64,000 nt of DNA. Source: a bacterium (GTDB lineage: Bacteria; Patescibacteriota; Patescibacteriia; S139-126). Location: NCBI GenBank assembly GCA_030666865.1, contig DAOUWZ010000001.1, forward strand, positions 44,753 through 108,752, read 5' to 3'. Below are positions 15,760 to 44,102 of the stretch, in pieces. Position numbers and translations under genes: made by a program. Every line of letters begins with the position of its first letter. Position 1 is the first letter of the stretch. The notes below the pieces were generated by a model. That model did not search any database. It saw nothing but the letters and a program-made list of their open reading frames with translations, and was not told the DNA's origin.

Positions 15760-15890
15760 ATCAATACTCTAAGTAGGCTTGACGCGAGCCAAAAATGGTC
15801 CTCCTTTATGGAGTATAATATGCGAGATCGGACTATTACCGTAGCGCGACTGTGCCGGAATTTCACCGGACTTCACCGCATAACCATTAA
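15760..15890 (-). promoter_or_regulatory. Putative cobalamin (B12) riboswitch aptamer in nrdDG leader
   Basis: GC-rich island on the minus strand: GCGGTGAAGTCCGGTGAAATTCCGGCACAGTCGCGCTACGGTAATAG. This resembles the cobalamin riboswitch core GGTGAAAATCC...CCCGC.ACTGTAA, and the E. coli btuB CAGTGCGAATCTGGAGCTGACGCGCAGCGGTAAGG. Confidence 0.4.
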
Positions 15891-16060
15891 TGAAATTAAA
15901 TTATGTAAATGAGTGTTTGTATTATAACATAATTTGTGAAACTCTAATTTTGGAAGATGTTAATAACTTAATAAAATTATTTAATTTTAACTAAAATGCT
16001 AAATAAAAAATAACTAAATACAAAAAACGCCTAACCCTTGTTTTATTACTATTATTTCTA

Positions 16061-16447: not shown

Positions 16448-16537
16448 TGGCGGTGGGACTGGGATTCGAACCCAGGAAGAGCGTAAACCCTTACCGCATT
16501 TCGAGTGCGGCGCTTTCGACCACTCAGCCATCCCACC
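16448..16537 (-). tRNA. tRNA-Ser (anticodon CGA), CCA encoded
   Basis: GGTGGGATGGCTGAGTGGTCGAAAGCGCCGCACTCGAAATGCGGTAAGGGTTTACGCTCTTCCTGGGTTCGAATCCCAGTCCCACCGCCA. Cloverleaf with long variable arm; anticodon loop CTCGAAA. Confidence 0.85.
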
Positions 16538-16544
16538 ACAATAC

Positions 16545-16802
16545 TTATTTTATTTTTAGCTTTTCAATAATATCGCGATATTGCTGATTTAACAATCGTC
16601 TTCCTTTATTTGATTTCAAAAATTTTTCTCTTCTTTGGGCATCGCTCTTTAAAGCATATGCTTCGTAACCAATTAAAACAATTGGTCTATAATTTCTAGT
16701 AGATGCAACCTTACCTGACTTATGCTCATACAACCTTCTTTTTAAATCATTACAACTTCCTTTATAAATATCCTGGTTGGATAATTGGATTCGCCGGGTC
16801 AT
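16545..16802 (-). CDS. Small GIY-YIG nuclease-domain protein
   Basis: IYKGSCNDLKRRLYEHKSGK...IGYEAY...AQRREKFLKSNKGRR carries the GIY-YIG / R / E / N motifs. The stop lies 7 nt before the tRNA-Ser 5' end. Start is ATG at 16800..16802; the track ORF uses a TTG at 16860..16862. Confidence 0.6.
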   Translation of the reverse strand: MTRRIQLSNQDIYKGSCNDLKRRLYEHKSGKVASTRNYRPIVLIGYEAYALKSDAQRREKFLKSNKGRRLLNQQYRDIIEKLKIK

Positions 16803-16905
16803 CCGACCCGGCGCCCCGTCGTATGACTGGGGCGAACCCACGGTACGGTATAATCCGCACAACTGATTTCGAGTCAGTCCCGTTAAACCACTCCGGCACC
16901 CTTCC
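16790..16905 (-). ncRNA. tRNA-Ser-like 5' module (acceptor 5' strand + D arm + anticodon arm CGA) fused to non-tRNA GC-rich hairpins; GIY-YIG leader
   Basis: GGAAGGGTGCCGGAGTGGTTTAACGGGACTGACTCGAAATCAGT closely parallels E. coli tRNA-Ser GGAAGTGTGGCCGAGCGGTTGAAGGCACCGGTCTTGAAAACCGG. It is followed by GCCGGGTC-GGAT-GACCCGGC, which encloses the GIY-YIG ATG, and a CGCCCC/GGGGCG stem. There is no T arm or 3' acceptor strand. Confidence 0.45.
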
Positions 16906-40608: not shown

Positions 40609-40683
40609 TGGTGACCCGTAGGGGAATCGAACCCCTGTTGCCAGGATGAAAACCTGGTGTCCTAACCCCTAGACGAACGGGCC
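40609..40683 (-). tRNA. tRNA-Glu (anticodon UUC), CCA encoded
   Basis: GGCCCGTTCGTCTAGGGGTTAGGACACCAGGTTTTCATCCTGGCAACAGGGGTTCGATTCCCCTACGGGTCACCA. Confidence 0.85.
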
Positions 40684-40697
40684 ATCAAATTTTAAAT

Positions 40698-40931
40698 TTA
40701 TAAACTAAATAATCTATTAAATAATTTTTCTTTAGCCGAACTGTTATTTTTAAGCTCTATCTCTCTCTTTAGCGCTGTGGTTTTATTATTATATGCTTCA
40801 TAATAAATCAATACCATCGGTAATTTATGTTTTATTGATTTAGTTTTTCCTGAATTATGTTGTTTTAAGCGTTCTTTCAAATCTTCAGAACAACCAATAT
40901 AAGTGGTACTATCTTTTTCACTCTTTAACAC
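40698..40931 (-). CDS. Small GIY-YIG nuclease-domain protein (non-ATG start)
   Basis: (YVYV)LKSEKDSTTYIGCSEDLKERLKQHNSGK...LIYYEAY...ALKREIELKN. The only in-frame start is GTG at 40931. The conserved YVY strand is encoded in-frame just upstream, after a TGA. Stop is 14 nt before the tRNA-Glu 5' end. Confidence 0.55.
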   Translation of the reverse strand: MLKSEKDSTTYIGCSEDLKERLKQHNSGKTKSIKHKLPMVLIYYEAYNNKTTALKREIELKNNSSAKEKLFNRLFSL

Positions 40932-40967
40932 ATATACATAAATACATGATCATAATTTAATTTTTAG

Positions 40968-41979: not shown

Positions 41980-43822
41980 AATAAATAAATTCAAAAATAA
42001 ATGGTTATTGGCGTCGTTAACTATTTTTTTTATAGTTTTGGGGATTATTTTTGGATTACTAACCACCCTTCAAGTTGTATATGCTAAAAAAATATTACCG
42101 AATACATACATAGCCGGCATAAGAGTAGGGGGACTAGCTCCTCCAGAAGCTTATAAACTCGTACAGAAAAAAACTGACAACCTTCTACAAAAAGGATTTG
42201 TTTTTAATTATAAAAATCAAAAAATAATAGTACAAAACTCATTACAATCACTGGGAGACCCTGATATAAATCAAGAGTTAGTTAGTTTTGACCTGACGAA
42301 AAGTATTGACGAAGCGGCTCTAAACATCATGACAGAAAAAAATCATCTGGACTATCTCAAATATTTTTATACTATTATTAAAAGAAAGAACGTTCCTCTT
42401 TATTTTTACGCTAATTATGATGAAATAGAAGAAATTATTAGCCGAGATATGAAACAAATAATTTCTCGAGCCAAGCCAGTTGGAATTGAAATAGATAACG
42501 ATAATTTTTCTATTACCCCTGATATAAGCGGTAAAAATATAGACTGGATAAAAATATTTGGAATATTTGACGCACAATTGAAAAACTTAATATCTGTTGA
42601 GATTCCCTTGACCTTGAAACTTGAAAATGCAGCCATATCTTATGATCAAGCTAAAAAAAATACCAATAAAATCCAGGAAATAATCAATAAAAGACCAAAC
42701 ATCAAACTAACTCACAAGGGATATTATTGGACAATTTCTTGGCCTGAAATTAACAGGTGGCTTATTTTTAAAAAGAATAATCAAGATATAGTAATCACCC
42801 TGTCTTATGATGAACTAAAAATATATTTGGAAGACAATATTTTAGATGAAATAAATACTCCAGCCAAGGATGCCAAATTTGAAATTAAAAATGGACGAGT
42901 AATAAAATTTCAAGGCAGTCATGATGGCAAAGAAATGAATTTAGATAAAACAATTAATCTGATTCAAAATAATTTCTCAAATAATTTATTTGAAAATGAA
43001 ATAATTGTAAGCCCTATCCAAGCTAAAGTTAATACCAAGGATATTAATGATTTCGGCATTAGAGAAATTATTGGCACTGGTACTTCAAATTTCTCTGGCA
43101 GTCCTAGAAATAGAAGACACAATATCCAAATTGGCGCTAATACCCTAAATGGTATTTTAATAAAACCTGGTGAAGAATTTTCTTTGGTAAAAACATTGGG
43201 CGAGATTAATAAAGAGAATGGATATTTAACTGAATTGGTAATTAAAGGAAATAAAACTATTCCTGAATATGGTGGCGGACTATGCCAAATTGGCACTACC
43301 ACATTCAGAACTACCTTCAATTCTGGATTACCTATACTTGAAAGAAGAAATCATTCCTACCGAGTTCGTTATTATGAACCAGCTGGAACAGACGCGACTA
43401 TCTATGACCCAAAGCCTGATTTTAGATTCCTAAATGATACAAAAAATTATGTACTTATTCAAACTAGAATTGAAGGTGATGAGTTAATTTTTGATTTTTG
43501 GGGAACAAAGGATGGACGAGAAATTAAAATATCTGAACCAAAAATCTATAATATCACTGCTCCACCAGCAACTAAATATATTGAGACAACCGAATTAGCT
43601 ATTGATGAAAAAAAATGCACAGAAAGCGCGCACGCTGGTGCTGACGCGCATTTTACCTATCAAGTAACCTATTCGGATGGCAAAATTGATGAAGAAATTT
43701 TCACCAGTCATTATAAACCATGGGGAGCTGTCTGCTTAATCGGTGTGGAAGAATTGCCACCTGAAAATCCTGAAAAAAACAATAGTCAGGTCAGCACTTC
43801 CACTGAAGAAAGTCTTGACTAA
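41954..43822 (+). CDS. VanW-family protein
   Basis: PGEEFSLVKTLGEI...EYGGGLCQIGTTTFRTTFNSGLPILERRNHSYRV is the VanW signature. N-terminal TM anchor; 622 aa. Confidence 0.65.
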   Translation: MKFLNQIAKINKFKNKWLLASLTIFFIVLGIIFGLLTTLQVVYAKKILPNTYIAGIRVGGLAPPEAYKLVQKKTDNLLQKGFVFNYKNQKIIVQNSLQSLGDPDINQELVSFDLTKSIDEAALNIMTEKNHLDYLKYFYTIIKRKNVPLYFYANYDEIEEIISRDMKQIISRAKPVGIEIDNDNFSITPDISGKNIDWIKIFGIFDAQLKNLISVEIPLTLKLENAAISYDQAKKNTNKIQEIINKRPNIKLTHKGYYWTISWPEINRWLIFKKNNQDIVITLSYDELKIYLEDNILDEINTPAKDAKFEIKNGRVIKFQGSHDGKEMNLDKTINLIQNNFSNNLFENEIIVSPIQAKVNTKDINDFGIREIIGTGTSNFSGSPRNRRHNIQIGANTLNGILIKPGEEFSLVKTLGEINKENGYLTELVIKGNKTIPEYGGGLCQIGTTTFRTTFNSGLPILERRNHSYRVRYYEPAGTDATIYDPKPDFRFLNDTKNYVLIQTRIEGDELIFDFWGTKDGREIKISEPKIYNITAPPATKYIETTELAIDEKKCTESAHAGADAHFTYQVTYSDGKIDEEIFTSHYKPWGAVCLIGVEELPPENPEKNNSQVSTSTEESLD

Positions 43823-43924
43823 TTAGTCGGTTTTGATTACAATAATAAAGCTATTTAAAATATATTACTAATATAATCACTGATTGTTATTAGTTATTAG
43901 TTATAAATTATTAGTGATTTATCT

Positions 43925-43971
43925 GCGGGTGTAGTTTCCGCCCGAGGCGGACCCGCCTTTGGCGGGCAGTC
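43925..43971 (+). ncRNA. tRNA-Gly-derived GC-rich hairpin element (orphan, no GIY-YIG gene)
   Basis: GCGGGTGTAGTT (identical to the first 12 nt of tRNA-Gly 55 nt downstream), then TCCGCC-CGA-GGCGGA and CCCGCC-TTTG-GCGGG perfect hairpins. Confidence 0.45.
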
Positions 43972-44025
43972 AAAGATTAACATTAATTAATTTCTAATAT
44001 TTCGATTTTACTTTTAAATTTTCAA

Positions 44026-44102
44026 GCGGGTGTAGTTCAGTTGGCTAGAACGTTTCCTTGCCAAGGAAAAGGTCGCCGGTTCGAATCCGGTCACCCGCTC
44101 CA
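44026..44102 (+). tRNA. tRNA-Gly (anticodon GCC), CCA encoded
   Basis: GCGGGTGTAGTTCAGTTGGCTAGAACGTTTCCTTGCCAAGGAAAAGGTCGCCGGTTCGAATCCGGTCACCCGCTCCA. Confidence 0.85.

Follow-up and report, generated by a model that had tools for sequence, protein, structure and literature searches.

In the current study, computational analysis of a 64,000-nucleotide stretch of contig DAOUWZ010000001.1 (hereafter the window) revealed that the small GC-rich element in front of its tRNA-Gly(GCC) gene consists of nt 1–16 of that tRNA with a clean 30-nt double hairpin (DH) inserted between nt 12 and 13. The element is best read, with a probability of approximately 0.6, as an ORF-less relic or miniature of a widespread and apparently undescribed tRNA-targeting homing cassette, in which a tiny GIY-YIG nuclease gene is wedged between a hairpin-tagged piece of a tRNA and the intact copy of the same tRNA. 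The element had been proposed from the sequence alone, and that observation proved to be correct, while the interpretation offered with it was supported only in part.

The tRNA-derived 12-mer GCGGGTGTAGTT occurs exactly twice in the window, at the element and at the start of tRNA-Gly, where 0.06 matches with up to one mismatch are expected by chance. Both hairpins are perfect 6-bp stems with 3-nt loops. Two refinements of the sequence-only reading are required. As the four bases following the hairpins continue the tRNA, the element is not a tRNA 5' end simply fused to hairpins, and the CCCGCC stretch which had been likened to the acceptor 3' strand is the 5' arm of the second hairpin, which matches the family consensus YC(A/C)(C/G)CC whatever the tRNA, so that the acceptor resemblance is probably coincidental. 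The region is one of only four 30-nt windows of at least 73% G+C in a window of 31.5% G+C, another being the hairpin block of the tRNA-Ser leader. The gap to the tRNA amounts to 55 nt from the end of tRNA homology, or 59 nt from the end of the hairpins, and neither an ORF nor a GIY-YIG remnant is detectable in this spacer; six-frame translations of 43901–44030 gave no match to the GIY-YIG profile (best E > 1), and the element is consequently classed as an ORF-less derivative rather than as a complete cassette. The features of this locus and of the two sister elements in the window are collected in the table below.

Coordinates of the orphan element, its tRNA and the two related cassettes in the window
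Position	Strand	Feature	Supporting observation
43815..43843	+	Promoter-like site TTGACT-17-TACAAT just after the VanW stop codon; probably drives the transcript containing the orphan element and tRNA-Gly	10 of 12 matches; a TTGACT/TTGACG-17-TAAAAT/TACAAT site lies at the same position in relatives L083, L084 and L085 (read from the sequence); transcription is inferred
43925..43936	+	Copy of tRNA-Gly(GCC) nt 1–12	12/12 identical to 44026–44037
43937..43951	+	Hairpin 1 of the DH, TCCGCC-cga-GGCGGA	Fits family positions 1–15, including the invariant T1, C2, C6, G10, G14 and A15
43952..43966	+	Hairpin 2 of the DH, CCCGCC-ttt-GGCGGG	Whole 30-nt module scores 44.2 bits (E 7e-9) on the + strand and 34.8 bits on the − strand with model R1
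43967..43970	+	CAGT, equal to tRNA-Gly nt 13–16; end of tRNA homology	Read against 44038–44041; four bases alone are weak evidence, but a short run of tRNA sequence past the hairpins is the family rule
43971..44025	+	55-nt AT-rich spacer	No ORF and no detectable GIY-YIG remnant
44026..44102	+	Intact tRNA-Gly(GCC)	71.7 bits; all 77 nt identical in L083, L084 and L085
40967..41059	−	Leader of the tRNA-Glu cassette: tRNA-Glu nt 1–22, a roughly 19-nt GC insert, nt 21–35, DH 41003–40972, then CATCC (nt 36–40)	nt 1–22 and 21–35 100% identical to the tRNA; 27.3 bits, E 8e-5 with R1
40698..40948	−	GIY-YIG gene of the tRNA-Glu cassette, apparently frameshifted; ATG at 40948–40946 followed by an extra T, the in-frame reading starting behind a TGA	Pfam PF01541, 4.9e-17; homologues start MFFVYVL / MYYVYVL; the frameshift is read from the sequence and is an inference
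40609..40683	−	Intact tRNA-Glu(UUC), of a type typical of Bacteroidota rather than of this lineage	68/72 identical to L003–L007, only 60–61/72 to relatives L083–L085
16780..16905	−	Leader of the tRNA-Ser cassette: pseudo-tRNA-Ser(CGA) with a 41-nt two-hairpin insert (16832–16792) in the T loop (TTCG^..^AATCC)	GC island 16786–16839; hairpins of a different type from the DH and not hit by R1
16545..16802	−	GIY-YIG gene of the tRNA-Ser cassette, first (GIY) strand missing or degenerate	Pfam match begins only at profile position 12
16448..16537	−	Intact tRNA-Ser(CGA) downstream of that cassette	

The DH is a family module rather than a local oddity. A covariance model (R1), built from 26 DHs taken by position from tRNA-Glu leaders of other genomes, finds the orphan as the best hit in the window, with the window's own tRNA-Glu leader second and nothing else below E = 1. 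The module is defined by two adjacent 6-bp hairpins, TCxxCC-loop(3–5)-GGxxGA followed by YCxxCC-loop-GGxxGR, of 30–32 nt in total, and the orphan fulfils this definition, as well as the requirements that the insertion lies within tRNA sequence on the tRNA's strand (on which the score is about 10 bits higher) and that an intact copy of the same tRNA is adjacent. As a MAFFT alignment of DHs with variable loops was mis-gapped, covariation was assessed on a gap-free subset, in which 312 of 312 cells are paired and eight of 12 pairs show compensatory changes, with a covariation score of 0.467 against 0.136 for shuffles (0 of 500 reach it). The nested single long hairpin predicted by ViennaRNA for this copy was rejected as the family fold, since it is only 87% paired and its pairs 4–27 and 12–19 fail in 14–16 of 26 sequences. 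An acceptor-like pairing of GCGGG with CCCGC into a minihelix, the minimum free energy structure under DNA parameters, is specific to this copy and is not supported by the family.

Across 80 genome loci, mainly of Patescibacteria and Bacteroidota, GIY-YIG genes of about 80 aa that comprise the catalytic domain only show a common architecture, namely a 5' fragment of a tRNA, a DH or other GC hairpins in a loop position, the GIY-YIG ORF and an intact copy of the same tRNA. Of these 80 loci, 57 have a tRNA within 130 nt downstream of the GIY-YIG gene on the same strand (median 18 nt from the end of the protein match), and in 50 of 60 tRNA nt 1–8 recurs within 200 nt upstream. The DH of such loci is always a clean insertion in tRNA sequence, at nt 35/36, 55/56, 15–17 or 8/9, or, in the present element, 12/13. 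ORF-less copies next to intact tRNAs were found in many other genomes (L numbers denote the individual genome loci and contigs compared), among them L073 (tRNA-Gly GCC, DH in the D loop), L164 (tRNA-Pro), L064, L005, L003 and L111 (four tandem units), while stacked complete units occur in L019, L051 and L021. Both nuclease genes of the window match Pfam PF01541 above its gathering score (62.4 and 40.8 bits against a cut-off of 22.6), and Y5, Y16, G18, R26, N31 and E62 are invariant, and H30 nearly so, in the alignment of homologues, although both window copies look decayed. The closest homologues are 73–74% identical, the best carrying a Flammeovirgaceae (Bacteroidota) title. Whether the copy at the tRNA-Ser locus is native or foreign was examined through synteny of its galU neighbour, which is not conserved and therefore gave no answer.

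Three syntenic relatives, L083, L084 and L085, allowed a direct comparison of loci. At tRNA-Glu, L084 is empty, L083 is occupied (nt 1–12, hairpins, an 81-aa GIY-YIG and the intact tRNA) and L085 is an orphan (nt 1–12, a degenerate hairpin, a 37-nt spacer and the intact tRNA), with the break at the same nt 12/13 position as in the element studied here; this was read from a pairwise alignment with cheap long gaps, since a three-way MAFFT alignment was mis-gapped. The suggestion in the sequence-only reading that the element is a footprint left by loss of the nuclease gene is thus supported by analogy, and its claim of a shared architecture with the GIY-YIG leaders is upheld by the covariance model. 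By the letter of the refutation test given with the sequence-only reading, occupancy at this tRNA is unproven: none of the three relatives carries a GIY-YIG gene at tRNA-Gly and none has this particular element, although each has a different tRNA-Gly hairpin or fragment arrangement there, L083 and L084 carrying other tRNA-Gly fragments and L085 only an upstream hairpin. Contigs L001 and L002, of the same species, carry an identical element and are therefore uninformative as to gain or loss. An occupied counterpart of the tRNA-Gly nt 12/13 junction was sought in metagenomes with a GCGGG-anchored DH pattern and none appeared among the 120 stretches retrieved, in a scan that was not exhaustive. 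The alternatives of a processing site or an att-like site, also raised from the sequence, are neither supported nor excluded.

Several other identities were tested and rejected. The DH is not a tRNA intron, as in silico excision of every perfect DH (271 strand instances) gave no tRNA spanning the junction with ARAGORN. No Rfam family matched credibly on the orphan, the tRNA-Glu leader or L084, only the intact tRNAs being recognised; no ribozyme family appeared in these scans, and inspection of the DH and its flanks by eye revealed neither a hammerhead-like core nor conserved unpaired nucleotides. No intrinsic terminator was called at 43937–43980, the sequence following the hairpins being CAGTCAAAGATTAAC. 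No relatives of the nuclease were found in IMG/VR viral contigs, and PADLOC returned only weak partial hits to defence systems. Full-text literature searches found no description of GIY-YIG genes with tRNA fragments and hairpins, although coverage of subscription journals was poor and a prior description cannot be excluded.

Based on these findings, we propose that the element is a solo member of a family of selfish cassettes that live at tRNA genes. A complete cassette reads, on the tRNA strand, as a tRNA fragment carrying GC-rich hairpins (in one large subfamily a 30–32-nt DH) inserted cleanly at a loop position, followed 10–25 nt later by the nuclease gene and 5–30 nt later by the intact tRNA. 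In this view the cassette would be transcribed from the tRNA's own promoter and the tRNA cut out of the precursor as usual, while the nuclease would break cassette-free copies of the tRNA gene in a loop-coding position and repair from a cassette-bearing copy, with conserved tRNA sequence serving as homology on both sides, would copy the cassette in, leaving a broken tRNA piece, the hairpins, the ORF and a restored tRNA. Because tRNAs are conserved across phyla, such a cassette could cross phyla and drag tRNA sequence along with it. At tRNA-Gly the nuclease gene would have been lost, either here or before a miniature copy arrived, and the remnant is most likely just part of the 5' leader of the tRNA-Gly precursor, removed by RNase P, with no function of its own. 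The architecture, the family membership, the structural covariation, the presence/absence/orphan polymorphism and the decay of the other two nuclease genes are demonstrated by the analysis, whereas nuclease activity, the cut site, homing and loss of the ORF at this particular locus are inferred, and what the DH does is not known. Cleavage of an element-free allele and copying by repair were not assayed, and the evidence for homing is indirect, resting on the empty, occupied and orphan alleles at one syntenic site, near-identical proteins across phyla, the foreign-type tRNA-Glu beside the cassette and the stacked units. Certain observations sit less easily with this proposal: the DH of the orphan is perfect, unlike the degenerate L085 orphan, and identical in two other samples of the same species, which would also fit a recent or a maintained element; its stems are of the CCGCC type while those of the window's tRNA-Glu cassette are of the CACCC type, so that it did not arise by copying from that cassette; and the homing model leaves the intact tRNA as a still-cleavable target and does not explain why hairpins are needed.

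Among the rival explanations, it is possible, though less likely, that the DH is itself a small non-autonomous mobile repeat (MITE- or REP-like) which inserts into loop-coding or hairpin-loop DNA, perhaps mobilised in trans by GIY-YIG nucleases or by something else, and that the tRNA-Gly copy never contained a nuclease gene, being either a DH insertion into a pre-existing partial duplicate of tRNA-Gly or a roughly 100-nt miniature cassette (DH, spacer, tRNA nt 1–12) copied in as such. Of 90 stretches with perfect DHs in the metagenome sample, only 5 had a GIY-YIG ORF within 900 nt and only 23 an intact tRNA within 400 nt, so that DHs may spread without ever carrying an ORF, although the sample was anchored on GCGGG and many contigs are short or end near the hit, which over-counts missing ORFs and tRNAs. 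A DH identical in 30/30 positions to that of the orphan occurs twice in tandem with 7-nt GACATTT repeats in front of a pilin-like gene of an unrelated 45% G+C contig with no tRNA nearby (L133), but an identical 30-mer can arise by chance in a very large database, as only about 6 loop bases and a few stem bases are free. Several DHs lie in the loop of an outer stem that does not look like a tRNA arm (L098, L119/L141, L129), tandem orphan arrays exist (four units in L111, three in L049, two in L033), and the intact DH of a different stem type from the resident cassette also favours this view. Against it, a plain DH insertion does not create a second copy of tRNA nt 1–16, the fragment-plus-intact-tRNA arrangement is the signature of the ORF-bearing cassettes, and the comparison of L085 with L083 shows an orphan derived from an occupied state.

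It is unlikely that the orphan is a working stand-alone RNA, whether guide-like, with the tRNA-derived segment pairing with the tRNA gene and the DH as a scaffold recruiting a nuclease made elsewhere, or a cis element affecting processing or stability of the tRNA-Gly precursor. This idea draws on the lack of any DNA-binding domain in the nucleases, which match only the catalytic part of the group I intron endonuclease model TIGR01453; on the occurrence of the same DH type at very different tRNAs and positions (Glu 35/36 and 55/56, Gly 12/13 and the D loops of Pro, Val and Ser), which is hard to reconcile with protein-only sequence recognition; on the DH always abutting a tRNA-identical segment of 8–38 nt; on conserved stem positions with variable loops, suggestive of a protein-recognised hairpin; on the two non-Watson-Crick pairs of the gap-free alignment both being G.U on the sense strand; and on the conserved upstream promoter, which makes transcription probable. 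However, there is no expression or binding evidence, the element is not conserved in the three syntenic relatives, its tRNA-derived part is only 12+4 nt, both nuclease genes of this genome look defective, its DH type differs from that of the resident cassette, two G.U pairs are too few to argue for RNA, and an 80-aa protein acting as an RNA-guided DNA nuclease has no precedent. A bolder and improbable form of the idea is that the fragment and DH form a guide-and-scaffold nucleic acid with cutting at the end of the duplex, so that targeting would be re-programmable by swapping the tRNA fragment and orphans and tandem arrays would be extra guides; this would be a minimal nucleic-acid-guided homing nuclease unrelated to Cas9, Cas12, TnpB or IscB. 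A terminator or stabiliser for the upstream VanW gene with a coincidental 12-nt match is effectively refuted: although GC hairpins such as GGCGGGcctgCCCGCC lie upstream of tRNA-Gly in all three relatives and the 12-nt match alone has a blastn-short E of only 0.21, no T run follows the hairpins, a conserved promoter sits between VanW and the element, the 12-mer starts exactly at tRNA nt 1 on the same strand and continues after the DH with nt 13–16, and the DH matches an independently built family model.

GIY-YIG nuclease genes next to tRNA genes are already known from the free-standing homing endonucleases of phage T4, where SegB is a site-specific endonuclease required for preferred inheritance of the T4 tRNA gene region in co-infection with a related phage (PMC2330249), that is, intron-less homing with transfer of flanking sequence, which matches the co-transfer of tRNA sequence seen here. 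Seg proteins are larger than about 80 aa and carry a DNA-binding region, no tRNA-fragment duplication or conserved double hairpin is described for Seg elements, and the present cassettes are chromosomal in Patescibacteria, Bacteroidota and other phyla. The closest solved structures are the small single-domain UPF0213 proteins (PDB 1zg2 and 1ywl, E 3e-14 and 3e-11) and SLX1 (6seh, E 1e-3), the latter named a structure-specific endonuclease in the PDB entries, which would suit recognition of extruded hairpins rather than of sequence; the function of bacterial UPF0213 proteins is unknown, and no link to tRNA genes or hairpin modules is recorded in the sources searched. Integrative elements with tyrosine integrases likewise target tRNA genes, leaving a partial tRNA copy at one end and restoring the tRNA from sequence carried on the element, and pairs such as [nt 1–35]-DH-..-tRNA-..-DH-[nt 36-end] look like attL/attR, but here there is no integrase, the element is only 0.1–0.5 kb, the duplicated part is usually the 5' rather than the 3' part of the tRNA, and the junctions lie in loop positions and carry hairpins. 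Bacterial REP/BIME elements with RAYT transposases, yeast mitochondrial GC clusters and the double-hairpin elements of Allomyces mitochondrial DNA are also short GC-rich hairpin modules in AT-rich genomes, with many ORF-less copies, insertion into structured or intergenic sites and an associated nuclease or transposase that may recognise the hairpin; RAYTs, however, are HUH/Y1 enzymes, no tie of these elements to tRNA-fragment duplications is known, and sequence similarity to them was not examined. Guide-RNA-bearing transposon nucleases (the OMEGA systems, PMC13565253; TnpB and IscB) are comparable only under the speculative reading of a selfish element whose nuclease is directed to the empty site by an RNA encoded at its end; there is no evidence for RNA guidance here, the protein fold is different and the protein is far smaller.

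If the proposed reading is right, tRNA genes of many uncultured bacteria, including Patescibacteria, Bacteroidota and other phyla, host a compact selfish cassette of 0.1–0.5 kb. How a bare GIY-YIG catalytic domain finds such different tRNA loops is an open question to which recognition of structure, recognition of the hairpin module, or base-pairing through the tRNA fragment are candidate answers. The orphan at tRNA-Gly is, on its own, most likely an inert relic. The cassette appears to use the universally conserved tRNA as both landing site and homology arm in its spread across phyla, to be able to overwrite a resident tRNA with a foreign one, as seen for tRNA-Glu in this window, and to leave as scars hairpin-tagged tRNA fragments that gene finders either ignore or mis-call, for which the covarying double hairpin provides a simple marker in annotation.

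The window is AT-rich (31.5% G+C) and carries four tRNA genes. The 12-mer GCGGGTGTAGTT repeats the first 12 nt of tRNA-Gly(GCC), and the two copies are the only ones in the window, with 0.06 copies expected by chance when up to one mismatch is allowed. Two perfect hairpins, each with a 6-bp stem and a 3-nt loop, follow directly (TCCGCCcgaGGCGGA and CCCGCCtttGGCGGG), and since the next four bases, CAGT, equal tRNA-Gly nt 13-16, the element is tRNA-Gly nt 1-16 with a clean 30-nt insertion after nt 12. A 55-nt AT-rich spacer without an ORF separates it from the intact tRNA. The region is one of only four short G+C islands in the window, another being the hairpin block in front of the GIY-YIG gene next to tRNA-Ser. 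The sequence-only reading described the element accurately, although the CCCGCC stretch which it likened to an acceptor strand is simply the 5' arm of hairpin 2. The positions of this and the other features are compiled in the table below, in which L-numbers denote the genome or metagenome loci used for comparison.

Positions of features in the window and in the compared loci
Sequence	Position	Strand	Feature
Window	43925-43936		Copy of tRNA-Gly nt 1-12
Window	43937-43966	tRNA strand	Double hairpin of the orphan element
Window	44026-44102		Intact tRNA-Gly(GCC)
Window	40609-40683	-	tRNA-Glu
Window	41003-40972	-	Double hairpin of the tRNA-Glu leader
Window	40944-40952	-	Apparent defect of the Glu-linked GIY-YIG gene
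Window	16448-16537	-	Intact tRNA-Ser(CGA)
Window	16780-16905	-	Pseudo-tRNA-Ser(CGA) in the leader
Window	16787-16802	-	Apparent defect of the Ser-linked GIY-YIG gene
Window	15815-15894	-	AdoCbl-II (cobalamin) riboswitch aptamer
L083	2744-2818		tRNA-Glu
L084	2371-2445		tRNA-Glu
L085	3007-3081		tRNA-Glu
L083	5913-5928		GC hairpin upstream of tRNA-Gly
L084	5169-5184		GC hairpin upstream of tRNA-Gly
L085	5924-5936		GC hairpin upstream of tRNA-Gly
L084	5257-5404		Second, larger insert family
L053	2897-2978		Second, larger insert family
L025	2910-2954		Second insert family, weaker match
L172	968-1010		Second insert family, weaker match
L133	1009-1077		Tandem double hairpins identical to that of the orphan
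L111	2550-2807		Tandem array of ORF-less units
L049	2912-3233		Tandem array of units
L021	2501-3727		Tandem array of complete GIY-YIG units

Two sister elements are present in the window. On the minus strand, tRNA-Glu is preceded by a GIY-YIG ORF (Pfam PF01541, 4.9e-17), which is itself preceded by a leader composed of tRNA-Glu nt 1-22, a roughly 19-nt GC insert, tRNA-Glu nt 21-35, a double hairpin (TCACCCttacGGGTGA CCACCCgctaGGGTGG) and CATCC, which is tRNA nt 36-40. In other words, a double hairpin (DH) is inserted cleanly into the anticodon loop of a truncated tRNA copy. The tRNA-Ser(CGA) gene is likewise preceded by a GIY-YIG ORF and, before that, by a pseudo-tRNA-Ser with a 41-nt two-hairpin insert in its T loop. 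The pseudo-tRNA-Ser(CGA) and the intact tRNA-Ser(CGA) have quite different sequences (GGAAGGGTGCCGGAGTGG... versus GGTGGGATGGCTGAGTGG...), and one of them is probably foreign, but synteny around galU is not conserved in relatives and gave no indication as to which. Both nuclease genes look defective: the Glu-linked gene has ATG followed by an extra T (after ATG TAT), so that the conserved MYYVYVL start is out of frame behind a TGA, while the Ser-linked gene starts inside the leader hairpin and lacks the first GIY strand, its Pfam match beginning at profile position 12. The AdoCbl-II riboswitch aptamer that was also detected (43.4 bits, above the gathering score of Rfam) is unrelated to these elements.

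Homologues of the Glu-linked protein are about 80 aa in length and occur in Patescibacteria and Bacteroidota at up to 74% identity. A scan of one genome per species found 560 relatives, of which 80 loci were retrieved for analysis. In 57 of these 80, a tRNA on the same strand starts within 130 nt of the end of the protein match (median 18 nt); three more have another unit in between, and ten have the tRNA just upstream. The tRNA is Glu for the closest subfamily, and Arg, Ser, Trp, Leu, Cys, Pro, Ile or Gly for more distant members. In 50 of 60 loci, the first 8 nt of that tRNA recur within 200 nt upstream of the ORF. For the tRNA-Glu subfamily, the leader reads tRNA nt 1-35, DH and nt 36 to about 45, followed by 10-25 nt and then ATG. 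The DH is always a clean insertion inside tRNA sequence, at nt 35/36 in the anticodon loop, at nt 55/56 in the T loop (L013, L015, L021, L032, L033 and L082), at nt 15-17 in the D loop (L060 and L073) or at nt 8/9 (L045). Many loci (L008, L015, L018, L037, L040, L041, L043, L049 and L079) also carry the complementary piece, roughly nt 27-35, DH and nt 36 to the end, downstream of the intact tRNA.

Complete units can be stacked in tandem before one tRNA (L019 and L051) or after it (L021 and L033). Among the tandem arrays, L111 has four 70-nt ORF-less units of tRNA-Arg nt 1-14 followed by a DH, L049 has three 146-nt units of a DH plus a tRNA-Glu 3' half, and L021 has three or more complete GIY-YIG units, each ending in a DH-tagged T-loop fragment. 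In the tRNA-Arg-linked subfamily (L066, L067, L075, L081, L059 and L076), the module inserted upstream of the GIY-YIG gene is not a DH; in most of these loci it is a single 20-nt GC palindrome, for example CCTGCCTGCCGGCAGGCAGG, placed after the D loop of the tRNA fragment, while L059 and L076 carry a longer, interrupted hairpin instead. The hairpin type therefore varies with the nuclease subfamily.

The DH is a structure under selection. Inserts were taken by position, between AGGTTTT and CATCC, rather than by complementarity. Twenty-six 30-nt inserts form two hairpins in 312 of 312 cells, and eight of 12 pairs show compensatory changes (51 cells). The covariation score is 0.467 as compared to 0.136 in shuffles, with none of 500 shuffles reaching it, while slid controls collapse to 20-45% paired. 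Positions T1, C2, C6, G10, G14 and A15 are invariant, whereas the loops vary. ViennaRNA prefers a nested long hairpin for the copy in the window, yet across the family this fold is only 87% paired and fails at two pairs in more than half of the sequences. A covariance model built from the 26 sequences, none of which derives from the window, was run without filters over the 64 kb and returned 44.2 bits (E 7e-9) at the orphan DH on the tRNA strand, 34.8 bits on the other strand, 27.3 bits at the Glu leader of the window and nothing else below E=1, and we conclude that the orphan is a member of the family. No Rfam family matches the orphan, the leaders or the locus of a relative.

VanW orthologues (about 53% identity) led to three syntenic relatives, L083, L084 and L085, all of which keep the order HSP20, DUF3006, VanW, tRNA-Gly, tRNA-Leu, with tRNA-Glu upstream. 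The organism is a member of the Patescibacteria, as inferred from the names on the best hits (Kuenenbacteria, Falkowbacteria and Komeilibacteria relatives). The tRNA-Gly gene is identical over all 77 nt in all four genomes, and a promoter-like TTGAC(T/G)-17-TA(A/C)AAT follows the VanW stop codon in each. Occupancy of the tRNA-Gly locus in relatives had been put forward in advance as a test of the proposal that the element is a footprint of a lost cassette, and none of the three relatives has a GIY-YIG gene or this element there. Each has something different: L085 has only a hairpin, GCGGGcattCCCGC, upstream; L083 has a similar hairpin upstream and, downstream of the tRNA, a 3' pseudo-fragment with a hairpin in place of the T arm; and L084 has tRNA-Gly nt 1-47, then a 148-nt ORF-less insert, then the intact tRNA. 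The GC hairpin (GGCGGGcctgCCCGCC or a variant) lies about 15 nt upstream of tRNA-Gly and downstream of the conserved promoter in all three relatives. Its arms resemble the tRNA-Gly acceptor stem (GCGGG/CCCGC), and it may be a normal pre-tRNA leader feature or an extremely reduced tRNA remnant. In L084, tRNA-Gly nt 1-47 is followed by a member of a second, larger ORF-less insert family, the core of which (GGGCAGAAATGAG..GAATGTCGATGAWTGCGA..AGCGCTGCCC, about 80 nt) is 78% identical between L084 and L053, where it sits in the T loop of a tRNA-Glu 3' fragment; it has no Rfam match, and weaker matches occur in L025 and L172.

At tRNA-Glu, the three relatives show three states. L084 is empty, with the promoter followed by the tRNA, while L083 is occupied, with nt 1-12, two long GC hairpins, an 81-aa GIY-YIG, 5 nt and the intact tRNA. 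L085 is an orphan, with nt 1-12, a degenerate remnant of the same hairpin, a 37-nt spacer and the intact tRNA, but no ORF. The break at nt 12/13 is at the same position as in the tRNA-Gly orphan of the window, and this represents the best evidence that orphans are ORF-less descendants of occupied sites. The footprint proposal is thus partly supported, by analogy with the tRNA-Glu locus rather than by any allele at tRNA-Gly itself.

ORF-less copies were also observed elsewhere. Among the genome loci, they lie between a GIY-YIG gene and the tRNA in L003, L005 and L064, and in tandem in L033. L073, a Bacteroidetes MAG, carries a pseudo-tRNA-Gly(GCC) with a DH in its D loop, situated 18 nt upstream of the intact tRNA-Gly(GCC) with no nuclease gene between them. 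A metagenome scan for GCGGG followed within 30 nt by a degenerate DH returned at least 120 stretches. In the 120 examined, 90 have perfect DHs, with an intact tRNA within 400 nt in 23 and within 100 nt in 20, and a GIY-YIG ORF within 900 nt in only 5. Clear orphans directly upstream of intact tRNAs include L164 (tRNA-Pro nt 1-17, DH and nt 18-23, then 7 nt, then the tRNA), L159, L114, L136, L162, L153, L170, L194 and L111, while T-loop 3' fragments include L089, L097, L118, L128, L156, L179 and L203. Some DHs are not in tRNA context: in L133 (metagenome contig Ga0209542_10001782), a DH identical 30/30 to the orphan DH of the window occurs twice in tandem, each copy flanked by the 7-nt repeat GACATTT, just upstream of a pilin-like gene on the opposite strand in an unrelated 45% G+C contig. 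This is either a chance identity in a huge database or evidence that DHs move on their own. Removal of DHs in silico never restores a complete tRNA (0 of 271 strand instances), and the DH is therefore not an intron in a working tRNA.

The proteins match the GIY-YIG domain, with Y5, Y16, G18, R26, N31 and E62 invariant and H30 nearly so, and the closest solved structures are UPF0213 proteins and SLX1. They cover only the catalytic part of the group I intron endonuclease model, below its cut-off, and so have no separate DNA-binding domain. No relatives were found in viral contigs, and there is no convincing defence-system match. With regard to horizontal movement, the tRNA-Glu of the window (GGCCCGT...ACGGGTC acceptor) is of Bacteroidota type, being 68/72 identical to the tRNA-Glu beside the closest nuclease homologues, which are in Bacteroidota (L003-L007), but only 60-61/72 identical to the tRNA-Glu of its own syntenic relatives (GGCGCCA...), which are nearly identical to one another; tRNA-Gly, in contrast, does not differ between the four genomes. 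The cassette seems to have brought its tRNA along, or to have converted the resident one.

Free-standing GIY-YIG homing endonucleases next to tRNA genes are known, for example T4 SegB (PMC2330249). The combination of a catalytic-domain-only nuclease, a duplicated tRNA fragment and a covarying double hairpin, the breadth of this combination across phyla, and the many orphan scars were not found in Rfam or in full-text literature searches, although these left out most subscription journals and a prior description is not ruled out.

The simplest account of these findings is a homing-type selfish cassette, which would use the tRNA promoter for expression and the tRNA sequence as homology. In this view, the nuclease breaks a cassette-free tRNA gene in a loop-coding position, and repair from a cassette-bearing copy then generates the tRNA fragment, the hairpins, the ORF and a restored tRNA. 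While the architecture, the covariation and the allelic states are read directly from the sequences, the breakage and repair steps are inferred, and none of them has been shown biochemically. The account explains the constant order and strand, the empty, occupied and orphan alleles, the stacking (because the intact tRNA remains a target), the cross-phylum distribution and the foreign-type tRNA-Glu. It does not explain what the hairpins are for, although their location exactly at the break in tRNA homology, their subfamily-specific sequence with strict pairing and the conservation of the stem ends suggest a protein-recognised structure. Candidate roles are a nuclease recognition or immunity site, an RNA stabiliser or, most speculatively, a scaffold next to a tRNA-derived guide.

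The main rival explanation is that DHs spread as independent miniature repeats and that the copy at tRNA-Gly never held an ORF; we consider this less likely, yet the metagenome sample, in which ORF-less DHs dominate, keeps it possible. Based on the findings of this analysis, we conclude, with a probability of about 0.6, that the tRNA-Gly element is an ORF-less relic or miniature of such a cassette, which is now probably only part of the pre-tRNA-Gly leader.
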